Origin: Klebsiella phage SopranoGao
Direction: 5' to 3' (one strand)
Sequence record: NC_054966.1
Length of the DNA stretch: 61,644 nt
Below the pieces are notes generated by a model that worked only from the letters and a program-made list of their open reading frames with translations, was not told the origin of the DNA and did not search any database. A program made the position numbers and the translations under genes. Shown in pieces: positions 971 through 40,482 of this stretch (position 1 is its first letter; each line of letters opens with the position of its first letter).

Positions 971-995
971 AAAAAAAGCCCGCTGGAACGGCGGG
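971..995 (-). terminator. rho-independent terminator (GCCCGC-loop-GCGGGC followed by T7 on minus strand) ending the lysis/late transcript
   Basis: GC stem-loop plus U-run immediately 3' of Rz stop. Confidence 0.6.
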
Positions 996-2290: not shown

Positions 2291-2862
2291 CAGACACCTC
2301 CGAACTGTTTGTAAGCGGAGGACATTTTCGTGTGGTACGAATTCTTAGCGAAATTTGGCCCATTGTAGATGCTGGCAAACGACGTCCAGTCTTTCGCTTT
2401 CAGCGCTTTTACCAGTCGCGGATCGGCCTTAATGAAGCGAACGAACGTATCGAGCTGACCTGCGGCCTTGTACTGGTCGTTAATGAACGCCTGCAGGGTC
2501 GGATAGCCGAGCGCTTTCCAGTGGTATCCCATGACCTGAAACGACCCCCAGGAGGCGGACTCCAGCGCGCAATCGCGGTCGTATTTGGCTGCGGTATCGA
2601 GACGTTCGTGCTCATCCGCTCCACCGAGATAGCCGCCGGGGGTTGAGCTACAGATACCGGAGGGGATCTTGCTGGTATCGATGCCTTTGGCGATGAGCCG
2701 TTTTTTGAAGATGTGACGTTCGAAAAGGATTTTCGGGCGGCCGTCTGCCAGGAAGCCGTTCCCCGAACTTTCGACGGAAGAAACCGCCTTCACTGCTGCA
2801 ACAGGAACACCGAGCTTACTGGCGGCGTCCTGATAGTCTTTTTCTGTAAGTGACTGCGACAT
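2290..2862 (-). CDS. endolysin, N-acetylmuramidase (Muramidase/DUF3380-type)
   Basis: motifs ILFERHIF, EHERL, SWGSFQVMGYHW; RBS AAGGAG 6 nt before ATG at 2862; 221-aa ORF N-extension rejected. Confidence 0.65.
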   Translation of the reverse strand: MSQSLTEKDYQDAASKLGVPVAAVKAVSSVESSGNGFLADGRPKILFERHIFKKRLIAKGIDTSKIPSGICSSTPGGYLGGADEHERLDTAAKYDRDCALESASWGSFQVMGYHWKALGYPTLQAFINDQYKAAGQLDTFVRFIKADPRLVKALKAKDWTSFASIYNGPNFAKNSYHTKMSSAYKQFGGV

Positions 2863-2950
2863 GCGCGACTCCTTGAAAGGTCGCCGCACGTCTTGCGCAG
2901 CTTGGTAGGTATATTTCGATTTTAGACCGAGCGTTGCCATAACCACAACA

Positions 2951-2987
2951 GACAAAAATAAAAAGCCCCCGGCTGAAACCAGGGGCT
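2951..2987 (-). terminator. rho-independent terminator between giant gene and lysis cassette
   Basis: stem AGCCCCCGG/CCAGGGGCT followed by T-rich run on minus strand. Confidence 0.5.
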
Positions 2988-3114
2988 AGTGGCGGTTCGC
3001 GATGATTACGTGCCGCCGTCACGCGCATACCCGCGCCGAAGCAGACGCGGGGAGGAAAGGCCCGAAAGCCCACACACCAAGCCGGATCACGCGCCAGCGT
3101 AGGTGTGTTCCGTC

Positions 3115-9100: not shown

Positions 9101-12100
9101 AGGCCCATGCGGCGCAACTCCATCGCTGCAGCGATCAGGGTGAAGGTCTTGCCCGCGCCGACTACGTGATCCGCCAGCGTCGTACCGCCCTGCACAATTC
9201 GCCAGACGGCGTTAGCCTGGTGCGGACGCAGACGGATAATGTCATCGGAGATTTTGCCGGGGAACGTCAGGTGAGAGCCGTCATATTCACGCGGCACATC
9301 GGTGTTGAACTGGTCGTTATAGATACGCGCCAGCGACTGGCGGCGGGCATCGTCAGACCAGATCCAGCGGCCAAATGCTTCCTTGACCGCGTTCACCTTG
9401 TCGTTGGCGAGTTGGGTTTCCGTCTCGTTCAGCGTGCGGGTGCCGTCGCGGTGGTTATCGAAAATCTGGATCGCCTTCTGCGACGCAGCTGCTTCGAGGA
9501 TTGTGCGAACGTCCGCTCGGTCGGTACCGTAGCGGGTTTGCGCTGCCGCCGACGACGCCAGGCCTGGGAATGACCATTTGGCGCTAACCGGGTTATAGAA
9601 TGCCTTCGCGCCGCTGGTTTCCGCAATCATGTCGGCAAACGCGCCCATCGTGTCAGCTGGTAGCCAGGTGGCCCCAGGCTTAACGTTGATGTCCACTGCC
9701 TCGATATCTTTCGGCTGTACAGCCTCCAGCGCTTCAACGTTGCGGTTGAACGCGGCATCGGTCTTCGCCCTCTCGCGGGCACGCGCCAGCTTCGTTTTCA
9801 CGTTGCCGGACAGGTACTCTTCGCGAGTTACCCAGCCTTTTTCCGGGTCGGAGTAAATCAGGTCATCCAGCTCGCGGATAATCTGGCTTTCTTCCTTGCC
9901 GTACAGGTCCGCCATCATCTCGATGTCAACGCGGCCTTTCTCGGCCAGCGATGCGACAAGAGCATCCTTCGCGGTCGCCGCGCTGGTGGGCGCGGTATAT
10001 GGTGACTGGGTGCGGCGACTGAAGATAGCGGCCTTCTTCGCACTCGGCTGGCGGGCTTCCTCGCCGGTTTTTTTGGCGACGGTAGCAGAAAGCCCCTTAT
10101 CGAAATCGTCTTCCAGCGCTGCCAGCTGCGGCCAGGTTGGATCGTCACGCAGTAAGCGCTTGTTCGCGTCCTGGTTAAGATAGCCGTGCTCTTTAACGAA
10201 AGCGTCATAGGCGCGGTTCAGACGCTTGCGGGCTGACTCGATAGCGGCATCGTCCGCCTTCGGATCCAGCTGCAGCTTGCGCAGCGCCGCCAGCTCGTCA
10301 CGAACGCCGATCATGCCGACGACGCGGGCTTTTGCCTTTTCGTTCGGAAAACTGACTGCTGTCGCGCGAGTTTCGCCCAGCTCGTCGCTGTCACGCATCA
10401 TGACGTTATCGCCATCGAGGAAGACGGATCCAACGCGGGCATTCTCCGCCACGACACTGGCCCGACTTTCTGGCTTCACGGTTTCTACCGGTTTAATGAC
10501 ATTTTCCGGCAGACGCTGAATAGCCTCGCCCAGCAGCTGAGAGGTATTTTGCCCCTCGCGCGCAATCAGGGCCGAGTCACCATCACGGTACATCGATCCG
10601 AAAGCGCCGAACTCGCCCAGCATGTTTTCAGGGTGCGTGACGAAATACTTGTTCAGCGGCACGACCTTGCCGTTTTTGTCGGTGAAATCGACGGTTTCCA
10701 GCCAGGAGCTGTTCATAGCGCTGGGCGTTTCATCCGGCTGACGCTTGCGCAGGAAGATAATATCGGTCGTCACCTGGGTACCGGCGTTTTTCGCAAAGGC
10801 GTCATTTGGCAGGCGGATAGCCCCCAGCAGGTCGGCACGGTCGGCAATGTACTGGCGCGCCTTATCGCTCGCCCCATCCATAAACCGGTTCGTCACAACC
10901 ATAGCCATGACGCCACCAGGGCGCAGGGCATCGACGGTACGGGCGAAGAAGTAGTTATGGATGCTGAAACCTGACAGGTCTTTGCGGCGGCCATCGTACA
11001 GCTTATCGGCACCGAACGGCGGATTGCCGATTGCGATGTCAAAATAGCCGTCCGGGATAACGTAGTCCTGATAACCCATGCGGGCGATCTTCGCCTCCGG
11101 GTAAAGCTGGGTAGCTATGCCACTGGTGATGCGGTCCAGCTCGACGCCGTGAAGCGCTGACGCAGCTCGCATATCGGAAGGCATCAAACCAAAGAAGTTA
11201 CCCACACCTACGGACGGCTCAAGGACGCGGCCACCGGTGAAGCCAAGGCGCTGCATTGCCTGCCACATGCCGGAAACGATCTCCGGGCTGGTGTAGTGCG
11301 CGTTCTTCGTGGAGGACGCGGCGGCCTGGTATTCTTCAGGCTGCAAGATATCGTCCAGCTCTGCGACTTCCCTTGCCCAGCCGCTGGTCGCGCTGCCATC
11401 GGTACGCTTGAACGCTTCCGGGATGCCGCCCCAGCCTACATACTTGGCGAGAATGGCCTGCTCTTCCTGCGTAGCCTGGCGGTTCATGCGCTCCAGGTCT
11501 TTCAGCAGAAGGATAGCCGCGACGTTATTGCGGTACTTCGTTTTCTTTCCGCCCTTGCCGATCTCGTCCGCGTCGATATTGAATGCGCGCGCCGGGCGGT
11601 CTTCCGCTACTGTGCCTGCGGTTGGTCGCTGTCCTCGTCCTGGCTGTTCACGATCCGCATTACTTCCTGCATCCTGGCTGCTGCCGGATTCGTCTCGTTG
11701 TCCTGTAGGCTCGCTTCTTCCGGCGGAAACAGGTACTTCTCCCGCGTCATCTCGAACGCTTCGTGCTCGCTGAATCCCTGAGCCTCCAGCTCGCTCACTT
11801 CCTGATACGTCTTCTCCGCTGCTTCGCGGAGAGCGTTGCCCAGCTGGTTCTTCGCTTTCAGCTGCGCGAATAGCGTCGGCTGGTGCTGTTTCCAGTGGTC
11901 TCGCGCCTGGCTCACCCAGTGGTTGAGATTCATTCGGTGTTACCTCACTGTCGAATTGAGCAACCATATCATCGAGAGCGCTGGTCTGCTTCGCTGCGGG
12001 CTGCTGCTGTTGTTCATTGGTATCGAGTTTAGCTAATTCGGTGCGGACAGTCTCTGGGCTGTCCATACCTTCGATAGAAATGCCGCTGTCTTCCATCATA

Positions 12101-15100
12101 TCGCGGCCGCCATTGTACCAGCTGCGCAGATACGGGCGAAGGCGGTTAATCGGAACATCGAGATCCGCCGCCATCGTGCGGGCGAAGTCTGCGAACTTGC
12201 GCACACCTGCTTCCAGGTGGAAAACAGCCAGCTCGGTACCGATAGCCAGGATTTCCGGATCCAGACCGCTGTTCAGCTGGCTGAATTTTGCTTTCAGCTT
12301 CTTACGCAGCTCGGCGGCGCGGTCCTGCGATACCAGTTTGTTGTTCGCGCCGTATTCAGTTTTTGGCGCGTTTTCTGCGGTTTTGGCCTGTTCTGATGCA
12401 CTTTCGGGCTGATTTGTTGCAGTTTCTGCCGGTTTTGGTTCAGCTTTCGCAGTTTCTGGTACGCGTTCGATTGTATCCTCAGCGTGAGAGCGAAGTTCTG
12501 CCAGCGCTTCGTCGCGGGTGCTACCGACTCCCTGTACCGGCAGATATTTTTCGCCGACCTTCACAAAGGCTCTCGCAACATGCGAACGATCCCCATCAGG
12601 ACCGGCACGGCGAGTAAAACTTGGCTCGGTGATTTCTGGTTGCTTTTCCTGTGCTGCTGGTGCTGGTTCAGCAACAGCCTCAACACGGTTAAAGCCCGAT
12701 CTGCGGGAATTGGCACGCTCCAGGTCTGCCAGGCTAACCGTAGTGCCGCCATTGGTTTCGAGGTTGGTCAGGTGAACAATGCCGTTCTTCTCGATCTGGT
12801 AAACGCGGTACTGCCTGCCAGCGGTGGTATAACCGATATCCTCCTGCGGAGTGACGATATCGCCCTCTTCAGCGCCCAGCAGCTTCTTCACACGGTTGTA
12901 GCGCGGCCCGTTCTTGCCTTTGGATGGAGCAGCTTTCTCGGTGGTACCCTCATTGGTGAGGGTACCATCCTGGCCTTTGGCGTGGATTTCGAAGCGACGA
13001 TCCACCAGACGGATTTCATGCGTGCCGGTGATGCCTTTTTTCTGCAGGTACTCGTTCGCCTTCCGCTCGGTACCGAACCATTTCTGGCTACCGTCTTTGT
13101 TAAGCGTTGGGTTCTGCTCTTCATTCGACGCCACCTGCTCCTGAGTTTTCCCACGCTGGGAAATACCCTGAATGGCATTTTTATCAATGACCGCATATTC
13201 GGTGCGTCCGCGCGGATCTGTACCGACGACAACGCCGTAACCTTTCGAAACCAGGTCGTTGATGGTGTTCTCGGAAAGGCGGGTAATGTCCCCTTCTTTC
13301 TGGAAAACCTTCGTGCCGGGCTTGATTTTCACGTCATAGACGGTCGGGGTACCCTCCATCATCCCGGCGTAGCCTTCAGCCTGCGCGGAATCCTTCTCGG
13401 AGGTGCCATAGAAACCGCCGTAAACCCGGCCTTTCTTGCCCTGTTTCTGACCATTGGCGCGAACAATCTGGATATCATCGAGCGTCAGGTTTCCATTTCC
13501 TGAACCGTGAACCAGCGTCATACCTTCAGCGCCAACGGTATTTTCACTGGTTGACTGTGGTACTTCTTCGGTCAGGGATGCACGCGACTTCTCATTAAGT
13601 CGGGTAGCCTCGGCGCTTTCCGCTTGCGTGCGCGAGTCCTTATTCAGCAACTCTTTCAGGCGGCGATTCTCAGATGGAGTAAGGCCGTTAGCCTGAACGG
13701 CTTCGGTATCTATTTCACCCTGCACAGGCGCGTTTTTCGCGTCAATTTCCTTCTCGACTTCACGGCGGGCTTTCGTCAGGCGCTCGTTCCAGCCGCCGGA
13801 TGATTTGGCTTGCTGGTGCAGATATTTCAGGCGGTCGCGCAACTCTGGCTCGGTCATTTCGCTGACGGCCTTCGGCTGGCGTGGCTGCTCTTCAGTTGCC
13901 TGCTCTACCTGCTGTGCTGGCTCATTCACCGCCTGCGCCGGTTGCTGCTGCACAACGTCGGCAGCGGCGTCCGGACGCACTACTTCATGCGGGCCAAACT
14001 CCAGGATTTCGCCGTTCTGGTCAGCAACGACAGCATTACCGTTACGGTATTCCTGAACGACGGCCGGGAATGCGGACTCCGGATCGTCGGATGGGATAAC
14101 CATCGTCTCCGCGCCCACCGGCCCCATGAACTCATCGGGGGTGTGGTTCTCGGCGGCAGCGGTATTCTGCTGTGCCTGGGCGGCCACATCCTCTGTGGTC
14201 TGCTGCACGCCAGCCTGAAGAGCGCGCCCCAGCGGCCCGGATGGTTTAACCTCCTGTGGCTGCTCGGTCGAAGACTGGCCGTTGCCCTCAGTAATCGTGA
14301 TGACTGGTCCTCCATCACGCCATTCACCGGTATAGCCCGGCGGCGGACCATTATCCTCGAACTTCACCGTTGGAATGGAGCTTCCGGAGTCTTCCTGGGT
14401 TTGATCGGCGGGATTGCTTTCGCTGACACGCGGCGCAGCAGCACCCATACCGGCACCCATGAGGCCACCCACGGCCAGACCGGCAGCGGCCTGGTTTGCC
14501 ACTCCCTTCATCAGCGGGGTGTTTGGATCTGCCTGCTGCATCGCATAGTTCTGGCTCATCTGCTGCGTGGCAGACTGCGGCATTTCCTCGAAAACGCCCT
14601 CACCAAGCGCCCCGGCGAGCGCCGCTTTAACGCGACCACCAGCGCGGTTAGTGATGATTTTTGCCAGCGCTCGATCACCCATGCCGCCGAAAATACCGGT
14701 GGAGATACCCGCCAGCATGAAGGCCTGGGAGGAAGCATTTTCCGCCAGCTGCGCGCGCGCCTGCTCGAAGGACAGGCCGCCGTCCATCAGCGACTTCATC
14801 GCATCGGAGTTAGCCAGCTGCTCTGGCTTCATCTTCAGGATATCTTCACGGACTTCACGGCTCGACTGGGCACCAGACAGGCCACCTTCCAGGATGCCAC
14901 CAGCGACTGTAGCAGTACGGGCAGCAGCTTTAGCGGCCACCTCGCGCGATGCACCGGATGCCAGGGCGCGGCGGTATGCCATCTGCGCCAGGCGGCCAGA
15001 TCCCCCCATCGTGAGCGCCATTTCCGGCAGGCTTTCCAGAATGCCGGACATATATGCGCGCGGATCGGACCAGGCCGGGCCAAAGTTATAGCCGGTGGAC

Positions 15101-16224
15101 TTCTTACCGTCGCCCAGGTCATCGCCCGGCTCGATAACGAAGGACTTCCGGCGCGCGGCCAGCATTTCAGGCGACAGGCGGCGCTCTACGCTCTCATCGT
15201 AGGCCTTAAACAGCTCCTGGGATGATCTTCCATTCGCCCAGCGGTCGAAGCGATCAGCAGCATCGACGATAGGCTTACCGATATACGGGATCTTGCCTAC
15301 CAGCTCCTGCACGTCCTTCGCTGCCGTGTTGAAACCAGAGTCGAGAAGCGCCAGCGCATCAGTAAACAGGTTGCCGTCTTTGTTGCCTTCCGGCTGCTTC
15401 TGCGGTTGCTGCGTGACAGATTGCTGCGCCGTCACCGCCTGGCCCGGCTGCACCAGGTCAGGAATATTGATTTCGATAGGCTTACCGCTCTGCATCGCCT
15501 GCTGCTGCATTTCCGGCGTGATGTGCTGCGACAGCTGCTGCATTTCCTCATCAGTGAGTGGGCGGTAGCGGCCTGGCTCTTCCTTGTTCATCTCATCGAG
15601 AAGCGCCTGGGTACGCTGGCGCGTCTGCTCCAGGTTCTCCATTGCGCTCTGCGCTGGCGGGTAATCCTGCGCGATCTGCTCCATGCGGGTTTGTGGCTGT
15701 TCCTGCTGCTGGGTTGGTTGACCGGCGGCAACGGACTGACCACCGCCCAGGAACTTCTCTGCGCGGCCTAAAACGTCTTTGCCGTACTGCGCTGTTTTCG
15801 GCCCCCACTGTTTGCGGTCATCACCACCAAAGTGCGCCTGCACTGCCTCCTGCATCGAGTAGCCTTTATCCAGGCGCTCACGCAGCTGGCGAGCAGCGGC
15901 ATCGATGGACTGCACAGGGTCGTAAGGGTTAATGCCCATACTTGAGGCGGTGCTATCGATGTACTGCATCAGGCCTTTAGCGCGGCCATATTTGGTAGGT
16001 ACGCCGATGGCGGTGGGGTTGAAAGAAGACTCCTGCTCTGCCAGACCCATCAGGACGTTAAACGGCACGCCGTATTTTTGGGATGCAGAGAGGAATTCAG
16101 CCTGGAACGGCACCGCGCCGCCGGTGTTGACGGTTTGCGCCTGCGGGCGCTGCGCCCAGTCAGGCAGGCCATAAGACGGCTGCTGGACAAGATCCAGCTC
16201 AGACGGCAAAGAGTTTTTAGCCAC
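3115..16224 (-). CDS. giant 4369-aa multidomain virion/ejection protein: N-terminal lytic transglycosylase, DarB-like N6-adenine methyltransferase plus SF2 helicase, HExxH motif, C-terminal hydrophobic region
   Basis: uninterrupted ORF with RBS GAGGA; domain motifs listed in sub-features. Confidence 0.85.
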   Translation of the reverse strand: MAKNSLPSELDLVQQPSYGLPDWAQRPQAQTVNTGGAVPFQAEFLSASQKYGVPFNVLMGLAEQESSFNPTAIGVPTKYGRAKGLMQYIDSTASSMGINPYDPVQSIDAAARQLRERLDKGYSMQEAVQAHFGGDDRKQWGPKTAQYGKDVLGRAEKFLGGGQSVAAGQPTQQQEQPQTRMEQIAQDYPPAQSAMENLEQTRQRTQALLDEMNKEEPGRYRPLTDEEMQQLSQHITPEMQQQAMQSGKPIEINIPDLVQPGQAVTAQQSVTQQPQKQPEGNKDGNLFTDALALLDSGFNTAAKDVQELVGKIPYIGKPIVDAADRFDRWANGRSSQELFKAYDESVERRLSPEMLAARRKSFVIEPGDDLGDGKKSTGYNFGPAWSDPRAYMSGILESLPEMALTMGGSGRLAQMAYRRALASGASREVAAKAAARTATVAGGILEGGLSGAQSSREVREDILKMKPEQLANSDAMKSLMDGGLSFEQARAQLAENASSQAFMLAGISTGIFGGMGDRALAKIITNRAGGRVKAALAGALGEGVFEEMPQSATQQMSQNYAMQQADPNTPLMKGVANQAAAGLAVGGLMGAGMGAAAPRVSESNPADQTQEDSGSSIPTVKFEDNGPPPGYTGEWRDGGPVITITEGNGQSSTEQPQEVKPSGPLGRALQAGVQQTTEDVAAQAQQNTAAAENHTPDEFMGPVGAETMVIPSDDPESAFPAVVQEYRNGNAVVADQNGEILEFGPHEVVRPDAAADVVQQQPAQAVNEPAQQVEQATEEQPRQPKAVSEMTEPELRDRLKYLHQQAKSSGGWNERLTKARREVEKEIDAKNAPVQGEIDTEAVQANGLTPSENRRLKELLNKDSRTQAESAEATRLNEKSRASLTEEVPQSTSENTVGAEGMTLVHGSGNGNLTLDDIQIVRANGQKQGKKGRVYGGFYGTSEKDSAQAEGYAGMMEGTPTVYDVKIKPGTKVFQKEGDITRLSENTINDLVSKGYGVVVGTDPRGRTEYAVIDKNAIQGISQRGKTQEQVASNEEQNPTLNKDGSQKWFGTERKANEYLQKKGITGTHEIRLVDRRFEIHAKGQDGTLTNEGTTEKAAPSKGKNGPRYNRVKKLLGAEEGDIVTPQEDIGYTTAGRQYRVYQIEKNGIVHLTNLETNGGTTVSLADLERANSRRSGFNRVEAVAEPAPAAQEKQPEITEPSFTRRAGPDGDRSHVARAFVKVGEKYLPVQGVGSTRDEALAELRSHAEDTIERVPETAKAEPKPAETATNQPESASEQAKTAENAPKTEYGANNKLVSQDRAAELRKKLKAKFSQLNSGLDPEILAIGTELAVFHLEAGVRKFADFARTMAADLDVPINRLRPYLRSWYNGGRDMMEDSGISIEGMDSPETVRTELAKLDTNEQQQQPAAKQTSALDDMVAQFDSEVTPNESQPLGEPGARPLETAPADAIRAAESEEPAGQRSPRSSGEDVSGSERAGGSGIQRARSVRDDAGEVPVSAGRSEPTGQRDESGSSQDAGSNADREQPGRGQRPTAGTVAEDRPARAFNIDADEIGKGGKKTKYRNNVAAILLLKDLERMNRQATQEEQAILAKYVGWGGIPEAFKRTDGSATSGWAREVAELDDILQPEEYQAAASSTKNAHYTSPEIVSGMWQAMQRLGFTGGRVLEPSVGVGNFFGLMPSDMRAASALHGVELDRITSGIATQLYPEAKIARMGYQDYVIPDGYFDIAIGNPPFGADKLYDGRRKDLSGFSIHNYFFARTVDALRPGGVMAMVVTNRFMDGASDKARQYIADRADLLGAIRLPNDAFAKNAGTQVTTDIIFLRKRQPDETPSAMNSSWLETVDFTDKNGKVVPLNKYFVTHPENMLGEFGAFGSMYRDGDSALIAREGQNTSQLLGEAIQRLPENVIKPVETVKPESRASVVAENARVGSVFLDGDNVMMRDSDELGETRATAVSFPNEKAKARVVGMIGVRDELAALRKLQLDPKADDAAIESARKRLNRAYDAFVKEHGYLNQDANKRLLRDDPTWPQLAALEDDFDKGLSATVAKKTGEEARQPSAKKAAIFSRRTQSPYTAPTSAATAKDALVASLAEKGRVDIEMMADLYGKEESQIIRELDDLIYSDPEKGWVTREEYLSGNVKTKLARARERAKTDAAFNRNVEALEAVQPKDIEAVDINVKPGATWLPADTMGAFADMIAETSGAKAFYNPVSAKWSFPGLASSAAAQTRYGTDRADVRTILEAAASQKAIQIFDNHRDGTRTLNETETQLANDKVNAVKEAFGRWIWSDDARRQSLARIYNDQFNTDVPREYDGSHLTFPGKISDDIIRLRPHQANAVWRIVQGGTTLADHVVGAGKTFTLIAAAMELRRMGLARKPLFAVPNHLVGQWATDFVKLYPGAKVLAATKRDFEKENRKKLFARISTGDWDAVIVAHSSFGKVQVDPEHEAEFIREQIDDLTSSIEAIREAEGQSSRNVKDAAKRRDALEERLKKLVDSENKDDSLYWSELGVDALFVDEAHEFKNLAYSTSMRNVAGLGDASGSQRAMDMFMKVRHVLKATGGRNVVFATGTPISNTMAEMYTMQRYMDYDNLKAQGLSHFDAWARMFGEVVTDWELSPSGKYKMTARFAKFVNMPELMQRYTSFADVINRDDINRQLAAQGKKLPVPKMKGGKPTNIVVPRSSMQATYIGEPTTDNNGIEQYPQGSLVYRAEHLPKKAEKGADNMLKIMSDARKVALDMRLIEPGAPDFERSKTNEAARRIKEDYDKWADDRGAQLVFIDLSTPKNAKAAEAARIRDLVEKAEQGDEAAAEQLDKLSPDELAALDGEFSVYDDLKQKLVALGIPENEIAFIHDAKTELQKEELFGKVRSGRVRVLLGSTSKMGAGMNVQDRLVALHHLDAPWRPSDLEQREGRIIRQGNKLYDRDPEGFEVGVYRYATKQTLDSRMWQTLEAKARFIEQVRKGNTAQREVEDIGGEAANAAEMKAASSGNPLILEEMTLRQKMRRLENERAGFDRDQYRIRDTIQQQRRKAEWMAKSLDELRQDVNLSVPDKFAMTINGQELEKRKDAGEALLSIAADMEHNHSDERQIGQYGDFPMSMERTSAEQFTINLEGAGSYTVNFGIGADPLGLTMRISNAVKDLGDAITVMEQGREKVLAEIPKLQEQLAEWPKAQELKDTRKRHAEVVDQLKPKKAEKPAENVAAPATEEPKPQYSVAANRAVRGALARGDAGALVAKLQKDGRIVIHDTPPENRRADAAGWVDPDGSIHLALSNLTADTAQSVLMHELFHSGMNAISGSPRWNNLISRLNEYVEAASRREGRETAWDRAYTRIEQSEEGSRRAEELGAYAVEHFEQMPPGIRKWAETVIGTVKNWVQQRFSVQLGDVTPSQLRALAAGAVRNQSPVKGATDTAYSMKPGEAKKEAEAFYGKKIDATRDLTGDALTAAMPTLLHWTPGRFLLKRVAKDIPALGEYADIKLKMDTFRDEWHALTDKLAQRWQKYRAKNAAENSQLMQIMHESTLAQADPSEKFESRLNGADLKILRDKKTSSDEWQQANKKAMDESAREKEWTRLSAEFQKLSPEGQALYRDVRDLYSKLANTQEAIIVANLEKAMEFRIKEAQRDFEDEMQAINDEGLKGEDREKAITAAKKKLDNARRRDAWNRRARVNQLRQEFESNRLAGPYFPLARFGDYFVTARNKKTNEIEVFSRQETPFQQSRVAKELRKQGFDVETGLISKTAELRKQVPAEFVARIEDILKGLPAAKETQDQVWQLYLERMPDMSLRKNRIHRKGRAGFEEDALRAFASHMFHGAHQTARMKFAMDLQDQLDEAKRQTKYTRNPTRSGLVLEQAEKNHQYVMNPTSNRIAQVATQGAFMWYLAQSPAAALVNMGQTVIVAPSKLAAFYDKGTARGMAVALGQINKAMFDLANGRTFAEQSRRVTPQEKAAVSEAYRIGLITRTQSHDVAGIADSGIKYRPTRARIMAAMSFMFHHTERINREATFLAAYRIARKRGLDHQNAIRKASELTWDSHYDYQNSSRPAVMHSNTGKALLVFRNYSLNMISDLAYTTYEIINPRNAQERREARTQMIGLLGSLAFNTGIRGLPLYGLLMVIAGMFSDDGEDPEVELKKTLLQYLPPSMVGIMMDGVPGYAFGVELSGRIGFGDLWFRSDDMDREGDSAYLYWLQQLLGPASSIPYTAVRGISQIQDGYTWRGMENLVPKAIRDPMKAYRYYSEGVTTKNGDPIVDEVGGWDVLKQAMGFTPARVTEQYKLNSYNMNKQKAITEERSKLLGDFYKAWKAGDEKKVDQITDKMRAYSEKYPEMRIDGAAVRSSLSRREKYRGQALGGMNYNQKLIPRLQEEQPGKVYR
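6355..6369 (-). other. HExxH (HELFH) zincin-like motif in C-terminal third of giant protein (aa ~3286-3290)
   Basis: VLMHELFHSG with Glu ~20 aa downstream. Confidence 0.35.
7450..9237 (-). other. SF2 (DEAH) helicase domain of giant protein (aa ~2330-2925)
   Basis: Walker A GAGKT, motif II DEAH (LFVDEAHEF), motif VI QREGRIIRQG. Confidence 0.7.
10735..11487 (-). other. N6-adenine DNA methyltransferase domain of giant protein (aa ~1580-1830)
   Basis: SAM motif LEPSVGVGNFFG and catalytic NPPFG (about 11011-11025). Confidence 0.7.
15805..16092 (-). other. soluble lytic transglycosylase (SLT) domain of giant protein (aa ~45-140)
   Basis: LAEQESSFNP catalytic Glu-Ser motif, GLMQYIDSTA, YDP. Confidence 0.7.
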
Positions 16225-32846: not shown

Positions 32847-32897
32847 GGATATTCCTCGGAACGATGAAAAGACAGGGGCTTTCGCCCCTGCTGGTGA

Positions 32898-33362
32898 TTA
32901 CTGCTGGTACTGCGCGATGGAGAGCAGCAGACCGATCTTCTTGCCTGCACCGGCGGTGACAGCTGCGGAGAACTTCACGCCAATGGAGCGGTCTTTCTGC
33001 GTCGGACTGACCAGCAGGGCGGCCGACTTCGCCAGCTGGGTAACTTCAGCGGTCAGCGCAGCAGCTGCGAACAGCTCGGTACCAACGGTACGGGCGGAAC
33101 CGTCTTCGTTGGTCGGCTCACCGGTGAGGCCGGACATAAGGCCAACATCAACGGTCGCCGCGCCCAGGCTTCCCACCGTGATCAGCTTCGCATCAACGAT
33201 GCGGGCATACGGAGGGAGTACAGCCAGCTCAATGATATCGCCGCCAGCGATGCCCGCCGCCGGTACATCCATGATGTATAGCAGGTCATGCGCCGAAAAT
33301 GCGGTTTGCGGGCGCGGGGGATTCAGCATCCCTACTGCCCACGGAGATTGAATCAGTGCCAT
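32898..33362 (-). CDS. 154-aa head-associated protein (unknown)
   Basis: immediately downstream of capsid gene. Confidence 0.4.
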   Translation of the reverse strand: MALIQSPWAVGMLNPPRPQTAFSAHDLLYIMDVPAAGIAGGDIIELAVLPPYARIVDAKLITVGSLGAATVDVGLMSGLTGEPTNEDGSARTVGTELFAAAALTAEVTQLAKSAALLVSPTQKDRSIGVKFSAAVTAGAGKKIGLLLSIAQYQQ

Positions 33363-33374
33363 GTGGTGATCCCC

Positions 33375-34478
33375 TTATGCTGCGTTCGGGTCTTTCGCTG
33401 CGGTGTCGATTGCCACCACGCCGAAATCGCGCTTGTTGAAACGGGTCTTGCTGATGCCGATGATGGTACCGGCGGCAACAGACGGCTCGTTGTCGTAGTC
33501 AGCCAGCTTCTCTTTCCAGGTGAAGTTCAGGCCTTTGGTGGTGCCATAAGCAACCACACCAGCCTGGCGACCCAGGAAGAGCGCGCGGGCGGCTTTGACG
33601 TTGGACGCTGCGCCGTAGTCGCTGAAGCGGATAACGTCGCGGTGCTTGTGCAGCACAATGTCATCGATCATGCCCAGGCCACCTTTGAAGATGACGTTGG
33701 CTTTACCTTCAGCAGCAGCGGCGGCTTTCTGGATATCCAGCCAGCCCGCACCGGCTTCGGTACGCAGGTCAAACGCCTGGGTCGGGTTCATCACCAGCAC
33801 GTAGTGGTCGCTGCCGCCGATAGGGATCGGGAGCAGGTTGGCGCTACGCGGGTCGAGCGCACGCATCATCGCTGCCTTATGGCTCGCCTTCTCAATCAGC
33901 AGGCGGGTCATTTTGTCGTCAGCGGTCAGGGTGGCTTTGCTGGTGGCGGAACCACCGAACAGCAGATGCTGGCCGTCCGGGGTGCGGATCGGGTTGCCTG
34001 CGTGCCCGGCGTAGTCGGACGGGAACGATTCATAGTTCTCGTTCATGCCGCGAGCGCCCGACAGGTAGATGAAGAACATCTGATCGATGTACTGGCCCCA
34101 CCATTCGGACAGGCGTTTTTTCGCAACGTCACGCAGATCGTGAGCGGTACGCTTGCGGGTCATCTTGCCGCCGCAGGAAACAGACTTACGCAGCTGGTCA
34201 ATGATGATTTCGTCGGAGAAGAACTTCAGCTGTTCTTCGTTGCCTTCCATACGCTGGTCGCCGGAAACCGGGCCGCCGCGTAACTGGACGGAGAGATCGA
34301 AGCTAATGCGGTCGCCCACATCAGCATCGAGTTCGGTCTTGCGCTGGATTACTGCGTCATCACCTTTACCGATGAATTTTTCCCAGTAGCTCTTCCCCAG
34401 CGTTTCCGCGTAGAGACGCGCCGACCATTTTTTCTGCGCCTGGACATCATTGCCCCAGGTGATAGTGGTTTGGCTCAT
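33375..34478 (-). CDS. major capsid protein candidate (367 aa)
   Basis: position after scaffold; size; abundant-protein codon usage and strong RBS. Confidence 0.55.
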   Translation of the reverse strand: MSQTTITWGNDVQAQKKWSARLYAETLGKSYWEKFIGKGDDAVIQRKTELDADVGDRISFDLSVQLRGGPVSGDQRMEGNEEQLKFFSDEIIIDQLRKSVSCGGKMTRKRTAHDLRDVAKKRLSEWWGQYIDQMFFIYLSGARGMNENYESFPSDYAGHAGNPIRTPDGQHLLFGGSATSKATLTADDKMTRLLIEKASHKAAMMRALDPRSANLLPIPIGGSDHYVLVMNPTQAFDLRTEAGAGWLDIQKAAAAAEGKANVIFKGGLGMIDDIVLHKHRDVIRFSDYGAASNVKAARALFLGRQAGVVAYGTTKGLNFTWKEKLADYDNEPSVAAGTIIGISKTRFNKRDFGVVAIDTAAKDPNAA

Positions 34479-34556
34479 AATGTGCCCTCAAGAACGTGCG
34501 GTGTGTCGGGATCGCCGCACGTCTTGCGCAGCATTACGTTTCGATTATCGAATGCC

Positions 34557-34573
34557 TGTTGCTGAAATGCAAA
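34557..34573. promoter_or_regulatory. imperfect operator-like palindrome GTTGC-TGAAATG-CAAAC upstream of capsid gene
   Basis: member of GTTGC/GCAAC motif family; shares 16-mer GAAATGCAAACACTCA with 41347-41362. Confidence 0.4.
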
Positions 34574-34576
34574 CAC

Positions 34577-34786
34577 TCATGTCATGCCAATGGCGTTTTT
34601 GCTTTGAATGTCAACCTCCTGTTGCCCTTCTTTTGCGTCGGGGCGCTTATCGCAGTGAATAATAACCTCATCCGGCGCGTCGATGACCAAACCGCACCGC
34701 CTGCCAGCTTTGTACACCAGGCGAACGGTGGCATCGCCAATTTTGAGAACGTCACCATCACGCAAATCGAATTTAAGTGCCCCCAC
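34577..34786 (-). CDS. CsrA/RsmA-family RNA-binding protein homologue (69 aa)
   Basis: LKFDLRDGDVLKIGDATVRLVYKAGRRCGLVIDAPDEVIIH aligns with CsrA [42 protein letters not shown]. Confidence 0.6.
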   Translation of the reverse strand: MGALKFDLRDGDVLKIGDATVRLVYKAGRRCGLVIDAPDEVIIHCDKRPDAKEGQQEVDIQSKNAIGMT

Positions 34787-34797
34787 GCTGCTTCTCC

Positions 34798-35718
34798 TTA
34801 TCGACGGGTGTAAGCGTCGTATTCTTCGGCGCTCATGCGGGCGATAGTCTCCTGGTACTTCTGAGGATCGCTATCAGCCATGCGGTCGAGCGCTGCGAAC
34901 TTGCCATCGTCGGTATCTTCCGGCGCGGCAGCGGGCACCTTCGCCAGTGTCGGGGGGATATCCAGCGCCTTTTGCTGCTGCTTCGGCTGCTGCTGGGCCG
35001 CCTGCTCCTGCTTCGGATTTTCGCTCGCCGGTTTCGGCGGTGCAATTCCGCGCTCATCGGCCCAAATGCGATACGCCCGCTCAAGGTCAGCCTCACCATA
35101 GCGCAGACCCTGCTCTGCCTTCGCTTTCGTGATGCTCTGCACCAGAATATCGAGGGCTTTAAAGTCCTCCTCGCTGGCGTAAATTTCAGGGTGACGCTCA
35201 GCAAACGCCTTCACATCGGCCTGCCACTGGCGCTCGATCTGCTGTTCGACGCTTTCGCGGTTCAGCTCGTCTTTACGCTGCTGCCAGTCCAGATCCCCGC
35301 GCTCTTTGTTCAGCTCGCGCAGCTGGGCATTATATTCGCGGGTGGTAAGCTCGCCCTCTTCGAACTTCTCGATCAGCTCTTCTTCGCGCTTATCGATATC
35401 GTCATACTTAGCCTTCAGTTCTTCGGTTGCCACCGGCTTAAATACCGGCTGTGGCACCGGCGCTTCAGGCTGCTGGGCTTTCTGCTGCTCCTGTTGGTCC
35501 TGCTGCTCTTCCTGCTGCTGTTCTTCCGGCTTCCCATCTTTCTCAGGGTCTGGCTTTTTGTCCGGATCGGTGTCCTGCTCTTCTTCCTGCTGTTGCTGCT
35601 GGGCGGCAACCTGATCCAAATCTACCTCCTGGTGCTCGGAATCACTATCCGGCGCTTCCAGGGCGGCGCGCTCTTCTTCGGTCAGGTTAGCCAGAATGCT
35701 TTCATCGATATCAGCCAT
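34798..35718 (-). CDS. scaffolding protein candidate (306 aa, acidic, coiled coil)
   Basis: Glu/Gln/Asp-rich, between portal and capsid. Confidence 0.5.
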   Translation of the reverse strand: MADIDESILANLTEEERAALEAPDSDSEHQEVDLDQVAAQQQQQEEEQDTDPDKKPDPEKDGKPEEQQQEEQQDQQEQQKAQQPEAPVPQPVFKPVATEELKAKYDDIDKREEELIEKFEEGELTTREYNAQLRELNKERGDLDWQQRKDELNRESVEQQIERQWQADVKAFAERHPEIYASEEDFKALDILVQSITKAKAEQGLRYGEADLERAYRIWADERGIAPPKPASENPKQEQAAQQQPKQQQKALDIPPTLAKVPAAAPEDTDDGKFAALDRMADSDPQKYQETIARMSAEEYDAYTRR

Positions 35719-35725: not shown

Positions 35726-38068
35726 TCACTGCTGTGGTTGTGGTTGAGGCAGGCCAGCGGGCTGCTGTTCCTGCTGTTGCTGCTGGGCGGCCTGTTCCTG
35801 CTGGGCCTGTTGCTCCTGCATAGCCTGCTGCTCGGCAGCGGCTTGCTGTTGCTGCTCGGCCTGCATCACTGCAGCCTGGCGGGCTTCTTCCTCACCTTCT
35901 GTTCGCGAGAGGAAGCTGGATTCATGGAGAATGTTGTCTGCTACCGGAACGGCGGCGGGTTGTGACAGCGCCATAAGTGCGGCTTCCAGCGCCGCTTTTT
36001 GGGTATTGACGTTCTGACCGGCCATAGACGCGAGGATCTGCTGAGCCTGGGCTTGTTCTTTGCCAGCTGATGCGGCGTTTTTCTGCGCATTGCTCTGTTT
36101 GAGCGCTGCTTCTGCCTCGTCTTTGGCGATTGCGGCCAGCTGTGCCCGTTGCTGCAGCTCTGCCTGCGCCTGCTTGGCCTTCTCGGCTGCAATCTCTTCC
36201 GGTGTTGGCTCCTCGGCGTCCGGGTCGCGCATGCCAGTGACCTGGCGGATACGCTTAACCAGCTCTTCACGGCTGGTGATATCCATCCCTTCGACCAGGA
36301 TATCCATCATGACCAGTGCCAGCTGCGGCGCTACTGGTGCCAGCTGCTGCAGCAGGCCAAAAAGCTCTTCGGTCTGCGCCTGGCGGATGGTATTACGCCA
36401 GTCTTCTTCGCCTATGACGAAATCAGCCTTTGAGCGAATGATATCATTGTCCGGATCCCCATCGTTGATGGTGATGTATTCCGGGGTATTGCGCATGTTC
36501 GTGATGCGGAACTGCTTTTCTTCGCTGTAGAACTGCTCGATGGCAGATAGCAGCTTCTCACCATGCACCTGGACGGCATAACGCAGGTTGTCGAAGATAA
36601 GCGCCGTAGCCAGACCGCCCTGCTCCTGTCTGGCGGTGATCGCCTTGCCGCTCGATGCGTTCGTTTGGCGGCCCAGGTTCTCATCGGTGACGCCGGAAAC
36701 CTGCTGAATCATGCCGATAGCTTGGCTCATCATTTGCAGGTGAGAGGCCGCAAGCTCACGGTCAGCGTTGATGATTAGCTCTTTGCCTTGTTTCTTGACG
36801 ATAACGGCATCCGGCCTGGCAACCTCTTCCCTGAACTCGTCCAGATCGTCTACGGCACCCTCGTCCATGATGGTTTTGTTCGTGGATATGATATGCAGCG
36901 CCTTACTGGCACGCTTATTGATATCCTCCTGCATGTCGCGCAGGTTACGGATCACGCCATACGGCAGCTTGTCGCGACCACGGCGATAGCACCAGATAGG
37001 CGTGAATGGGTATGAGTTGTGCCGGTACGGGCTTGGTCCATCCCATAGCATGCCACCGACGCAGAAAATCGAGACGCGCATACGCATGGCGCGGGGAATA
37101 GTGACCGGATATCCTCGCTGTGCCTCAATATCAGCCTGGTGGCCGGGTGCCGGGTCATCCGGATCGTATATCTCACCGTTGAAGTCACCGCCGCGCATTT
37201 TCTCCACTTCTTCGGTGACTTTATGCCAGGCCTCGATAATGCGGACACGCTCACGTTTGAAGGTGGTGACGGCATTGCGGTAGTGCGATGTCTCGTTAAG
37301 GCGTTCCTGGCTGTCGGACGCGTCATCGCCGTAGTCATCGATCTCCCAGTCATTGGCAGCGCGCGCACACATGCGCAGCAGTCCAGCACGGTCAGGGAAC
37401 ATCGCTTCAGCTACATCGAGATCCACCCACTTAAAGCGGAACACATAGCGGGCGTCTGACAGGTCCGGCTCTGTGCAGGCGCTATCCCACAGGATGTTTC
37501 GCCAGCTCTCGTAGCGGTCATAGACCGGTTCGCCGTCTTCAGGCTGCTGCAGGCCTTCTTCCATCCAGCCTACTCCTACCTTCGTGCAATCCTCGAAAGC
37601 CCGGCTGCGGTGGAATGGTGAGCGGTTGATGTCGCTCAGATACTTCATGAGCTGGGTCTTGCGCTCTGCGGCCCTACCGGCATCTTTCCGGCGTGGCAGG
37701 ATTTTCCAGTCCGTGCGTCCGCGCTTTTCGGTGCCGATGATCCAGTTGATGCTGGTGGCAATGACGTTATAGACCAGCGGCACCTGCCCGCGCTCTCTCA
37801 GCGCTGCTGCGTCCTGCTCACGCCACTGGATGCCATCATAGAAATCTTCGTCCCTGGCCTGCTGCTGGCGGTTATCTGCCTGGCGGGCCAGCTCATCCTG
37901 GAATATGCCCAGGAGGCGGGCATAGCGAGCGACCATATCGGGATTGTCTAATGCATGGTCGGGTTTCCCGCGCTCTTCCTCGCTGGCGTATGCTGCGTCC
38001 GGTAAGTCATCGAGCGGCACATGTCTGGCGTCGCGCAGGTCAAAGCCCGTATCTGGTTTATCAAACAC
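35726..38068 (-). CDS. portal protein candidate (780 aa) with Gln-rich C-terminal tail
   Basis: position downstream of terL; size. Confidence 0.55.
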   Translation of the reverse strand: MFDKPDTGFDLRDARHVPLDDLPDAAYASEEERGKPDHALDNPDMVARYARLLGIFQDELARQADNRQQQARDEDFYDGIQWREQDAAALRERGQVPLVYNVIATSINWIIGTEKRGRTDWKILPRRKDAGRAAERKTQLMKYLSDINRSPFHRSRAFEDCTKVGVGWMEEGLQQPEDGEPVYDRYESWRNILWDSACTEPDLSDARYVFRFKWVDLDVAEAMFPDRAGLLRMCARAANDWEIDDYGDDASDSQERLNETSHYRNAVTTFKRERVRIIEAWHKVTEEVEKMRGGDFNGEIYDPDDPAPGHQADIEAQRGYPVTIPRAMRMRVSIFCVGGMLWDGPSPYRHNSYPFTPIWCYRRGRDKLPYGVIRNLRDMQEDINKRASKALHIISTNKTIMDEGAVDDLDEFREEVARPDAVIVKKQGKELIINADRELAASHLQMMSQAIGMIQQVSGVTDENLGRQTNASSGKAITARQEQGGLATALIFDNLRYAVQVHGEKLLSAIEQFYSEEKQFRITNMRNTPEYITINDGDPDNDIIRSKADFVIGEEDWRNTIRQAQTEELFGLLQQLAPVAPQLALVMMDILVEGMDITSREELVKRIRQVTGMRDPDAEEPTPEEIAAEKAKQAQAELQQRAQLAAIAKDEAEAALKQSNAQKNAASAGKEQAQAQQILASMAGQNVNTQKAALEAALMALSQPAAVPVADNILHESSFLSRTEGEEEARQAAVMQAEQQQQAAAEQQAMQEQQAQQEQAAQQQQQEQQPAGLPQPQPQQ

Positions 38069-38545: not shown

Positions 38546-40165
38546 TCACACAGCCATACCCGAAGTATTTCGTCTCGGTTTCGCCTTTGTGCGGCGGCGG
38601 CCAGCGTTCGGGTCCGATCCGTACACCTGCGCCCACTGACGTAATGCGTCGGCGGCCTCACTGTGCCCGTCGTCTTTCTCTGGCTGGTCGGTGAATGTCT
38701 GCATCCGGTTATTGTATTTTTTCCGGTAGCTATCCAGGTGAGCGATGCCCTCTTTACAGGCGTCCTTGTCGATCCAGGCTGTTGCCAGCATGTTCCTGGT
38801 TATCTGGATGCCGTGCTGCAGCTCGGAGACGCGCTCAACGATCTCGATCCGGCGGCGACCCTCTTTCTCCAGCATTTCTTTCGGTGTCAGGTTGGCATTC
38901 TGCCCCTGCCGTACATGGTTGCCGTCGTGAGGCAGGTAGTCAGTGCCCCAAACATACCCCAGCTTGTCCAGCTCCCGGACGTAATAGCCGTATGGTTCGT
39001 CCCAGCCCTCAATGAAGCCGATGAAGCGATGCTCCTGCCCGATATGCTGGTGCAGCCAGATAGCCGTTCCGTCGCCGCTGCCGATGTCCCAAAACGTGTT
39101 GACTGGATATCCTGGCGTATACGGCACGGTGGTAATGCGCTTCTCCTTGCGCATCTTGACCATCTGTTTGGTGTAGTAGCAGCCCTCTGTCGATTTCTGG
39201 AAAGCCTCTTCCGGCGAACTGGGGTATTCCTGCCACATCTTCTCGTCCTGGCCGGAATAGACGTTATCACGCGTGCTCACCCACCATGCCCGCTGCTCGA
39301 TATCGATCATGGTGTCCATTTTGGCTTCTATCTCGTCAAAATATTCGTGCTCTGTCTTCGAGATATCAACCAGCTCCGGATCCATGCGGTACTGCATGTC
39401 CTCCCACCAGGGATAGAAGTGGAAGGCGAATTCCTTGTTCGTGAGCCTGCGCCCCAGGGCGGCAATCTTCTGCGCCCGCTGGCACATCATGAAGAATTCA
39501 CCTTCCCGGCCTTCAGCGGTGGACTCGATGAAAATCATGCCCATTTCGGCCGCCGGGATGGAGCCGGTCACTACCTCATTGGCGCGGTCAGGGAACTTGG
39601 CGCAGATTTTACCGAACTCGGAAATGTGCAGGTGGGTCAGCGTGCCGCCACGGAATGAGGTGGCAACGCTCACCTTGCTGCCGTTGTGGGCGAATTCCAG
39701 CGCGTCGGCGCGGTCGCGTACCAGCGGCATCACCGCACGCAGAACATCCGGCAGGTTGTCATAGCCGAACTTCACCTTGTCCCTGAATATCTCCTCAGCC
39801 ATGTCCTGGTTATGCGCCACGATAGCCGCTGTCGTCGGGTTATTGGCTGGGGCGAACAAAGCACAGTCGAGAAACAGGATAGCGATGAACGTCGTGAAGC
39901 CCAGCTGGCGCGCCTTTAAGATGATATTGCGCTTATGCAGCCTCTTCAGCAGCTTCCGCTGCGCCCGGTTCGGCTTGAATGGCACAATACGGACTTCGCT
40001 TTCATCCTCTTCCCCAAACTCATCGCGCGGCTTGGTCTTGATTTTGTACAGCTGCCCTGAGCACAGTCGCCAGTATGGGTCACTGAGACACTGGAACAGC
40101 TCATCATCGTTCGATGGCACGAAATCGAGCGGCACTGAGCCGGGTTTAGCCGCCTGCAAACTCAT
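38546..40165 (-). CDS. terL: terminase large subunit
   Basis: Walker A region KARQLGFTT, nuclease motifs WDIGSGDGTAIW and HDG; start at MSLQAAKPG with RBS. Confidence 0.8.
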   Translation of the reverse strand: MSLQAAKPGSVPLDFVPSNDDELFQCLSDPYWRLCSGQLYKIKTKPRDEFGEEDESEVRIVPFKPNRAQRKLLKRLHKRNIILKARQLGFTTFIAILFLDCALFAPANNPTTAAIVAHNQDMAEEIFRDKVKFGYDNLPDVLRAVMPLVRDRADALEFAHNGSKVSVATSFRGGTLTHLHISEFGKICAKFPDRANEVVTGSIPAAEMGMIFIESTAEGREGEFFMMCQRAQKIAALGRRLTNKEFAFHFYPWWEDMQYRMDPELVDISKTEHEYFDEIEAKMDTMIDIEQRAWWVSTRDNVYSGQDEKMWQEYPSSPEEAFQKSTEGCYYTKQMVKMRKEKRITTVPYTPGYPVNTFWDIGSGDGTAIWLHQHIGQEHRFIGFIEGWDEPYGYYVRELDKLGYVWGTDYLPHDGNHVRQGQNANLTPKEMLEKEGRRRIEIVERVSELQHGIQITRNMLATAWIDKDACKEGIAHLDSYRKKYNNRMQTFTDQPEKDDGHSEAADALRQWAQVYGSDPNAGRRRTKAKPRRNTSGMAV

Positions 40166-40209
40166 CGCGCCCCCTCGAAAAACAACGATGTGAAGATATT
40201 GCACAGAAA

Positions 40210-40225
40210 ACCGCTATAATGCGGT
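40210..40225. promoter_or_regulatory. palindrome ACCGC-TATAAT-GCGGT (-10-like hexamer inside inverted repeat) upstream of XRE gene
   Basis: read directly. Confidence 0.4.
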
Positions 40226-40263
40226 GAGGCATGTGCATTTATTTCACTTTGAGGATATCGAAT

Positions 40264-40482
40264 ATGGGCGGATTTGAACTGAAACTCTGGCGTAATGGCC
40301 TGGGATGGTCGCAGGAACGGGCAGCTGAAGAGCTGGGAGTGAGCAGACGGACTTACCTTACGTGGGAACAGAAAGGCACCTCCCGCGTGGTTGAGCTTGC
40401 CACGCAGGCGCTGTCCATCAAAGCCGAATGGCCTGAAACCGCCAAAAAGCTGAATAGGCTGTCCACTCTCGCGAAGCACTAA
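40264..40482 (+). CDS. XRE-family HTH regulator (72 aa) encoded antisense between terS and terL
   Basis: HTH WSQERAAEELGVSRRTYLTWEQ; RBS GAGGA; 3' end overlaps terS stop by 4 nt. Confidence 0.6.
   Translation: MGGFELKLWRNGLGWSQERAAEELGVSRRTYLTWEQKGTSRVVELATQALSIKAEWPETAKKLNRLSTLAKH

Follow-up and report, generated by a model that had tools for sequence, protein, structure and literature searches.

The genome of Klebsiella phage SopranoGao (NC_054966.1), analyzed here over its full stretch of 61,644 nucleotides (the window), encodes a small CsrA-like protein within the head-gene module. The coding sequence (CDS) lies on the minus strand at 34577..34786, starts with GTG and specifies 69 aa (stop codon included in the coordinates; translation MGALKFDLRDGDVLKIGDATVRLVYKAGRRCGLVIDAPDEVIIHCDKRPDAKEGQQEVDIQSKNAIGMT). 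The protein belongs to a phage-specific branch of the CsrA family, designated here head-module CsrA-like (PHROG 8397), which is present throughout the Bcep22/Lastavirus podophage supergroup. Its gene is followed by the leader of the major capsid protein (MCP) gene, and the new element described here is a conserved late-gene leader stem-loop, GCGC-A-N-G-A-(N)-GUGC. Comparison of these sequences leads us to favor, still tentatively, a scenario in which the CsrA-like protein would act on such leaders and, together with the stem-loop, constitute a phage-internal post-transcriptional switch of late translation. An initial annotation of this DNA had proposed a CsrA/RsmA-family gene between scaffold and major capsid genes. 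The exact open reading frame (ORF) is present, every protein segment quoted in that annotation is found in the translation, and the flanking genes are a scaffold-like gene, so called by position only, and the MCP gene (PF13252).

Searched as a single sequence, the window protein reaches 14.4 bits (E 0.037) against the Pfam CsrA family (PF02599), below the cut-off of 27, and its phmmer matches to PDB CsrA chains (E 0.17-0.3) are not significant. The match is clear at the level of its family, whose profile aligns with that of CsrA at a probability of 96.7% (hhalign, E 3.9e-10) and matches RsmE (2jpp) in PDB with an E of 2.8e-8. In agreement with this, the PHROG 8397 profile, labelled 'CsrA-like regulator', matches the window protein at E 2.7e-12. 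A profile search gathered 192 proteins of 57-70 aa, a size similar to that of CsrA, RsmA and RsmE, mostly from contigs of ~60 kb; an exhaustive search reached 1750 cluster representatives at E <= 0.001, and 75 of the 79 aligned family members match PF02599 at E <= 0.01. At the structural level, the AlphaFold2 (AF2) model has a mean predicted local distance difference test (pLDDT) value of 75.6, with 80-92 over residues 1-50, which correspond to the CsrA beta core. When this model is compared with PDB by Foldseek, ranks 1-14 are all CsrA, RsmA or RsmE (root-mean-square deviation 0.7-1.5 Å over 37-46 columns; TM score, target, 0.55-0.82), and the beta-sandwich core overlays CsrA/RsmE at about 1 Å over 45 residues. 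The model contains the five-stranded core of the CsrA fold; in the AF2 monomer, beta1 and beta5 are not called as strands, as expected if they pair with a second chain, in the way of the interdigitated (domain-swapped) CsrA homodimer. Since the family-profile, PHROG and Foldseek evidence is clear, homology and core fold can be considered established, and the CsrA fold claimed by the initial annotation is that of a real, very diverged homologue. A weak match to Pfam FlbT (PF07378; best E 0.001) was also observed in 9 of the 79 family members, FlbT being a flagellin translational regulator of alpha-proteobacteria.

The RNA-contact residues of beta1 and beta5 in CsrA are critical according to alanine scanning, and the protein under study, with 23% identity to E. 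coli CsrA, keeps only part of them. The equivalents of CsrA Leu2, Leu4, Arg6, Arg7, Val40, Val42 and Arg44 are L4, F6, L8, R9, V41, I43 and C45. Hence, of the contact residues whose conservation had been raised in the initial annotation, Arg44 (Cys45) and Arg6 (Leu8) are gone, whereas Arg7 (R9) and the hydrophobic positions are kept. This picture extends to the family: Arg7 is retained in 111 of 121 members, the hydrophobic positions of beta1 are kept, and the equivalents of Leu2, hydrophobic Leu4, Gly9, Gly27, Ala36, Val40 and Val42 are conserved. Unlike CsrA, the phage proteins lack Arg6, carry Asp or Glu at the Thr5 position, mostly Lys at the Ile3 position and an invariant Lys at position 25, vary at Arg44 and have no C-terminal helix. 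A Cys at the R44-equivalent position occurs in 4 of the 121 members and is confined to Lastavirus-type proteins. The alpha-helix that follows beta5 in CsrA (EEIYxRIQ) is missing from the AF2 model, and in the family alignment a variable non-helical tail stands where CsrA has EEIY. In the window protein this tail (residues 51-69) is disordered, with pLDDT below 55 and a hydrophobic end, SKNAIGMT. Altogether, the RNA-binding face has been remodelled relative to CsrA and the C-terminal helix has been lost. Arg44 contacts RNA in the RsmE complexes (PMC4005645).

Two further features of the protein were noted. The hydrophobic patch of the tail (coding positions 34577..34636, minus) is conserved, SKNAIGMT being replaced in relatives by AKNGIGAMP, MAVAMP, LALQA or VVVAPA, and judging from these sequences the tail end may be a short motif by which the protein docks onto a partner. 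Besides, Cys31, His44 and Cys45 (RRCG...IIHCD) are unique to Lastavirus-type proteins, and a metal site or a disulfide across the dimer formed by these residues is conceivable.

The putative regulated target, the MCP gene (33375..34478, minus; PF13252, E 9e-69; phrog_334), is separated from the CsrA-like gene by 98 nt, all other operon junctions being tight. A gap of 95-112 nt with conserved sequence exists across five genera, and the order portal, scaffold-like, CsrA-like, ~100-nt gap and MCP is kept in Lastavirus, Parlovirus, Ittyvirus, Lessievirus and Pavtokvirus. A consensus scan predicts in this gap a sigma-70-like promoter, TTTGCA-N18-GATAAT (34573..34544, minus), conserved in the five genera. 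Downstream of it lies the conserved stem-loop GCUGCGC[AAGAC]GUGCGGC (34532..34514, minus), a candidate binding site for the CsrA-like protein identified with RNAalifold, whose invariant core, GCGCA-N-GA-N-GUGC (34529..34517, minus), was obtained by leader comparison. The 3' part of the leader (34476..34501, minus) contains the Shine-Dalgarno sequence (SD) GAGGG (34489..34485) and the AUG (34478..34476). RNAalifold on 14 gamma-clade leaders gives the local hairpin GCUGCGC[A-N-G-A-Y]GUGCGGY, and the form common to all clades has a GCGC/GUGC stem and an A-N-G-A-(X) loop. This register replaced an earlier one (stem CGCA/UGCG, loop AGACG), which was discarded because the RNAalifold register fits all clades. 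The loop reads AAGAC in the window, whereas Bcep22 and the beta clade have AGGAU, AGGAC, AGGAA or AGGAG closed by a C-G pair. The latter form is the canonical CsrA-type site, an AGGAX loop with a C-G closing pair in a 5' leader near the SD, and complexes of RsmE with stem-loops of the A(N)GGAX class have been solved (PMC4005645).

The distribution of gene and motif was followed in an MCP-anchored scan of IMG/VR, since the CsrA-like alignment is too diverse, with no stretch conserved enough, to serve as anchor. Eighty loci were recovered, 72 with enough flank for counting the upstream gene; a CsrA-like ORF lies immediately upstream of MCP in 56 of these 72 and is displaced or divergent in 3 more. 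Nearly every MCP leader of the IMG/VR loci carries the motif, for a total of 55 distinct leader sequences. It is always in sense orientation, is duplicated for divergent genes, and lies at a narrow distance from the AUG (39-63 nt) and a variable one from the -10 (8-20 nt). The outgroups 933W, Vibrio D53 and Rhizobium Y1_10 (~31% MCP identity) have neither a CsrA-like gene next to MCP nor the motif, and in 933W and D53 the MCP gene begins only 23-24 nt after the scaffold gene. Rfam contains no match to the motif at E <= 10 over the leader region, nor at gathering score over the whole window, and no description of this leader element was found in Rfam or in the searchable literature. Some loci depart from the common arrangement. 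In L008 (IMGVR_UViG_2671180917_000004, 1865..3001), an additional gene of ~200 aa has been inserted after the CsrA-like gene (1865..2119), ahead of the MCP leader; this leader retains the promoter and a canonical AGGAC loop, and the CsrA-like protein has Ser at the R44 position. L027 and L069 have a CsrA-like gene and no recognisable motif, and their MCP leaders share AAGCACAUGGC(C/U)AUGAC, which may be a diverged version of the leader element.

The predicted fold of the leaders would oppose translation initiation. In the structure preferred by the complete leader, the segment from SD to AUG is engaged by the motif or by its 5' flank, so that the start codon is buried. In the window MCP leader, the 3' half of the motif is paired to CCGCACGUUCUU (34501..34490) and the 5' flank of the motif to GCACAUUAUG, the latter pairing burying the MCP AUG. 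The minimum free energy (MFE) of this leader is -27.7 kcal/mol, as compared with -18.0 kcal/mol when the local hairpin is enforced (z-score -3.15); the values for the window endolysin leader, described below, are -24.9 and -16.2 kcal/mol (z-score -3.24), and those for the Bcep22 MCP leader -29.3 and -15.4 kcal/mol. A leader can adopt either the local hairpin or the occluding fold, not both, and the two differ by 8-14 kcal/mol. The long-range pairing covaries between clades, as illustrated by GGAGCUGC/GCAGCUCC, GGAGUGUC/GACACUCC, GGAAGUGC/GCACUUCC, GGAUGUGC/GCACAUCC and GACGUGC/GCACGUC. Stability is higher for cognate than for non-cognate duplexes (-11.3 vs -9.0 kcal/mol), the observed mean being reached in 0 of 2000 permutations, and the same holds for the gamma-clade P1 helix formed by the 5' flank and the pre-AUG stretch (-7.2 vs -5.0 kcal/mol; 1 of 5000 permutations). 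Sequence relatedness inflates these permutation tests, of which the explicit compensatory variants are independent. The variable positions of the motif covary with the translation initiation region, which speaks for a role at the RNA level, and the invariance of the local-hairpin sequence calls for a trans-acting reader.

The motif is not restricted to capsid genes. In the window there are exactly two strict copies, against ~0.1 expected by chance, and both are located in leaders. The second exact copy, GCGCAAGACGUGC (2898..2886, minus), lies inside a 21-nt identity with the MCP leader, GCTGCGCAAGACGTGCGGCGA, and precedes the endolysin gene (2290..2862, minus; SD AAGGAG at 2874..2869), which heads the lysis cassette and would be the second putative target. 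In the MFE fold the endolysin AUG is sequestered by base pairing to the motif's 3' half. Upstream of this copy are a -10-like TAAAAT (2924..2919, minus) and a hairpin resembling a terminator, with a T-run (about 2987..2953, minus), and the cassette has, in the region 2855..2990 (minus), its own terminator-like hairpin, predicted promoter and leader. In IMG/VR, all leader-context hits of the exact 16-mer are in front of either MCP genes or endolysins, the latter of three different sequence types; hits elsewhere are intragenic chance matches. In Bcep22, two additional strict hits were rejected as leader copies, being intragenic in a GC-rich genome.

The rearranged IMG/VR loci L060-L075 have 3 kb of flank, and the complete genomes of the alpha-proteobacterial phages Atu_ph08 and PBC5 were examined in their place; a scan with gp17 of Atu_ph08 recovered contigs other than these loci. 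There, the CsrA-like genes (gp17 and gp26, respectively) stand behind portal and scaffold-like genes, with the MCP gene 27-30 kb away, and GCGCAUGAGUGC heads the MCP, endolysin and DarB-like leaders of both phages as well as the leader of a virion-protein operon in Atu_ph08. All four exact motif copies of Atu_ph08, and three of those in PBC5, are in late leaders. A CsrA-like gene lying 27-30 kb from MCP while the motif is kept in dispersed late leaders is what one would expect of a factor that acts in trans on a scattered regulon. The fourth PBC5 copy (L127, NC_003324.1), GCGCATGAGTGC at 961..972, overlaps the start codon of the integrase (CDS from 965); it may be due to chance or link the late-leader motif to integrase translation. 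In Atu_ph08 (L086, NC_070876.1), the annotated MCP CDS (39240..40370) starts 33 nt upstream of the ATG (40337) that aligns with other MCPs, and this start is probably mis-annotated, because the annotated CDS would include part of the leader motif. In the window, a giant 4369-aa ORF (3115..16224, minus) occupies the position in which Bcep22-like relatives annotate a DarB-like antirestriction protein, and no motif copy was found upstream of it, whereas the alpha-type phages have the motif in their DarB-like leader.

A mechanism can be outlined for the late-translation switch tentatively favored here. The candidate target would be the stem-loop with a GCGC/GUGC stem and an A-N-G-A-(N) loop near the 5' end of late-unit leaders, that is, those of MCP and endolysin in the window and additionally those of DarB-like and virion-protein operons in the alpha-proteobacterial relatives. 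This stem-loop would be transcribed 30-45 nt ahead of its competitor, and the CsrA-like protein might capture it as soon as it forms. Without capture, the whole leader would refold, pairing of the motif or its 5' flank with the SD-AUG region closing the initiation region; capture would keep this region open and lead to translation activation. Activation is the favored direction, as the leader would by itself be inhibitory and no product is needed in larger amounts than MCP. The AAGAC loop together with the Cys in place of Arg44 implies that the specificity, if binding occurs, has drifted from canonical GGA. The initial annotation had mentioned in passing a control of phage late mRNAs; this idea is the one favored by the evidence and now has candidate targets at 34532..34514 and 2898..2886, to which the protein may bind.

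Several observations weigh against this explanation. On the protein side, Arg6 is found in none of the 121 family members, the window protein included, Leu, Ile or Val being present instead, and Arg44, which 74 of the 121 members have as Arg, is Cys45 in the window protein. On the RNA side, the window loop AAGAC is not GGA, and GGA-to-AGA mutations abolish binding by RsmE (PMC4005645). The motif is base-paired, not exposed in a loop, in the minimum-energy fold, and the local hairpin displays one-sided changes only, with zero compensatory pairs, so that it is a putative hairpin, consistent with the data; its conservation could reflect another factor or a DNA-level role. The transcription start of the MCP leader derives solely from the consensus scan. 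Bcep22 has the motif in the MCP leader only, and the joint gain of gene and motif amounts phylogenetically to a single event. Of the 19 taxa with GGA loops, 14 have Arg at the R44 position, among them Bcep22 (gp54, AGGAU loop), as compared with 4 of the 44 with NGA loops, but this association rests on about 4 and 7 state changes on the MCP tree, and given so few independent changes the co-evolution of Arg44 and GGA is only suggestive.

The same components could be used in the opposite sense. A CsrA-like dimer bridging the leader stem-loop and the SD would lower MCP and endolysin translation, providing feedback or timing as for B. subtilis flagellin. Canonical CsrA acts mostly as a repressor that occupies two sites, one of them at the SD (PMC4005645; PMC13443453), the leader fold draws the stem-loop close to the SD, from which it is separated by about 35-45 nt, and the endolysin SD (CAAGGAG) sits in a hairpin loop and conforms to ANGGAX. 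Yet the window MCP SD is GAGGG, not GGA, and the leader alone buries the AUG at -25 to -29 kcal/mol, so that a further repressor would hardly seem necessary for the protein that the phage expresses most. Repression is accordingly regarded as rather unlikely.

The possibility most often raised for genes of this kind is a host-directed CsrA mimic, or 'moron', that would bind host GGA sites or compete for CsrB/CsrC, rewiring carbon storage, motility and biofilm, or repressing CRISPR-Cas, an activity that has been proposed for RsmA homologues of phages. Klebsiella possesses a Csr system and the protein is a true CsrA-fold homologue. Moreover, Campa et al. (2021) showed RsmA to be a repressor of CRISPR-Cas in Serratia and included the LASTA protein, as an RsmA homologue from a phage, in an alignment with CsrA (PMC8450108), and the JC1 paper treats the CsrA gene as a moron (PMC9144972). 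Against this, the low identity to E. coli CsrA, the Cys and Leu replacing Arg44 and Arg6, the acidic residue in place of Thr5 and the missing C-terminal helix can be cited, and the head-module position is fixed in phages of alpha-, beta- and gamma-proteobacteria, including Burkholderia and Sinorhizobium hosts reported to have no chromosomal csrA (PMC7366521). Host-like CsrAs are in fact known on mobile elements, such as RsmM-type proteins of F116-like Pseudomonas phages, the Vibrio phage CsrA, the plasmid-borne RsmQ and Legionella CsrT, their function in phages being untested in all cases (PMC7366521, PMC8450108, PMC9928087). The phage ones form a separate class: they are 55-89% identical to RsmA, keep the full length and are encoded away from the capsid gene, as in Epa33, where csrA at ~15.5 kb and MCP at ~28 kb are on opposite strands. 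The present family is, in contrast, an old, phage-specific branch with fixed synteny. No Rfam family, those of CsrB/Rsm-type RNAs included, reaches the gathering score anywhere in the window. CsrB repeats follow the consensus CAGGA(U/A/C)G, on which no argument here relies. The host reprogramming and CsrB/C titration put forward in the initial annotation thus find no support, and a host-directed role appears quite unlikely.

Quite unlikely as well is a role in head assembly or in the virion, as a scaffold accessory or an ejected protein, in which RNA regulation would have been lost and the leader motif would be unrelated, either folding on its own account or being recognised by a different factor, for instance the small, conserved helix-turn-helix regulator encoded between the terminase genes. 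One CsrA peptide was detected in CsCl-purified JC1 virions, a single peptide that the JC1 authors themselves consider weak evidence (PMC9144972). The gene always follows the scaffold-like gene and not the MCP gene, the conserved hydrophobic tail resembles a docking peptide, key Arg residues are lost, and at the DNA level, too, the motif forms an imperfect inverted repeat. However, the CsrA core is kept family-wide, including Arg7, Val40, Val42 and the invariant new Lys at 25; the motif is strand-specific, always sense and duplicated for divergent genes; its spacing varies with respect to the -10 and is narrow with respect to the AUG; and its variable positions covary with the initiation region. 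The sense orientation, the variable -10 spacing and this covariation also make it less likely that the motif works in the DNA, as an operator or as part of a promoter.

Compared with known systems, the proposed late-translation switch would share the logic of phage Mu Com and mom. Com activates translation of the mom mRNA, and in both cases a small phage protein on a leader hairpin would keep the RNA of a late gene from refolding in such a way that its start codon is hidden, with the difference that Com is a zinc-finger protein unrelated to CsrA. CsrA itself can activate translation through RNA remodelling (PMC13443453). The phage system differs from CsrA/RsmA/RsmE in that its gene is in the head module, that some of the hosts are reported to have no Csr, and that the candidate site in the window phage is AAGAC. 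In B. subtilis, the CsrA-FliW-Hag system likewise places a CsrA-type gene in the cluster of a self-assembling structure, with two leader sites on its most abundant subunit (PMC13443453), an arrangement that is proposed for the phage. Unlike in that system, no FliW- or CesT-like antagonist was identified among the neighboring phage genes scanned. It is speculation, based on the conserved C-terminal tail and the one JC1 virion peptide, that the CsrA-like protein is coupled to assembly. A more ambitious version would make of protein and stem-loop a self-contained viral translational regulon controlling capsid, lysis and some DarB-like or tail operons, with the tail coupling protein availability to procapsid assembly as a viral counterpart of CsrA-FliW-flagellin and with specificity co-evolved from GGA (Arg44) to NGA (Arg44 lost); taken as a whole, this version is distinctly improbable.

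Regarding the genomic surroundings, the SD of the CsrA-like gene, AAGGAG (34799..34794, minus), was read directly from the sequence and overlaps the TAA stop (34800..34798) of the gene upstream. This gene (34798..35718, minus; phrog_8246) encodes a 306-aa acidic, Gln-rich protein, and beyond it lies the portal gene (35726..38068, minus; phrog_156). The location of the CsrA-like gene after portal and scaffold-like genes is constant in phages of gamma-, beta- and alpha-proteobacteria, and it adjoins the scaffold-like gene even where the MCP gene has moved away. On the other side of the MCP gene, a terminator-like hairpin, GCAGGGGCGAAAGCCCCTGT, followed by a T-run (32872..32891, minus) stands directly after the gene for a 154-aa virion protein (32898..33362), and Bcep22 has an annotated terminator at the equivalent place. 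From the sequence, this hairpin and the promoter at 34573..34544 would bound a short two-gene, high-expression MCP transcription unit. The remaining genes of the lysis cassette are a holin-like gene (1940..2290), an ORF (1614..1943) and a spanin gene (1051..1617), all on the minus strand.

Part of this was already known. The window phage, a Klebsiella podophage of the Lastavirus type, shares 94% identity with ZX1, LASTA and SJM3, and its protein is 93-99% identical to proteins annotated as 'CsrA-like regulator' in these three phages, with identical synteny; Parlo, Itty13, Bcep22, BcepIL02, BcepMigl and PEp14 carry this annotation too. Since sister phages annotate the gene in this way (PHROG 8397), the CsrA-like observation was known at the annotation level. 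Sobrero and Valverde list csrA-positive phages and report Burkholderia and S. meliloti as having no chromosomal csrA (PMC7366521), and a 2026 Lastavirus paper merely lists the gene (PMC12989515). No functional study of the head-module CsrA-like gene was found in the literature searched.

Phage-borne CsrA homologues have been catalogued, have never been given a function and are usually assumed to manipulate the host. In therapy-oriented annotation of Klebsiella, Burkholderia and Ralstonia phages, the gene is now read as a possible 'moron' that modulates host fitness or virulence. If the phage-internal switch proposed here is true, late expression in these phages would be timed by a new mechanism at the mRNA level, downstream of ordinary sigma-70-type promoters, and CsrA-type regulation would be operating in hosts that have no Csr system. 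It would furthermore provide a natural series of protein and RNA variants, from AGGAX with Arg to AAGAC with Cys or Gly, in which to follow the evolution of CsrA specificity.

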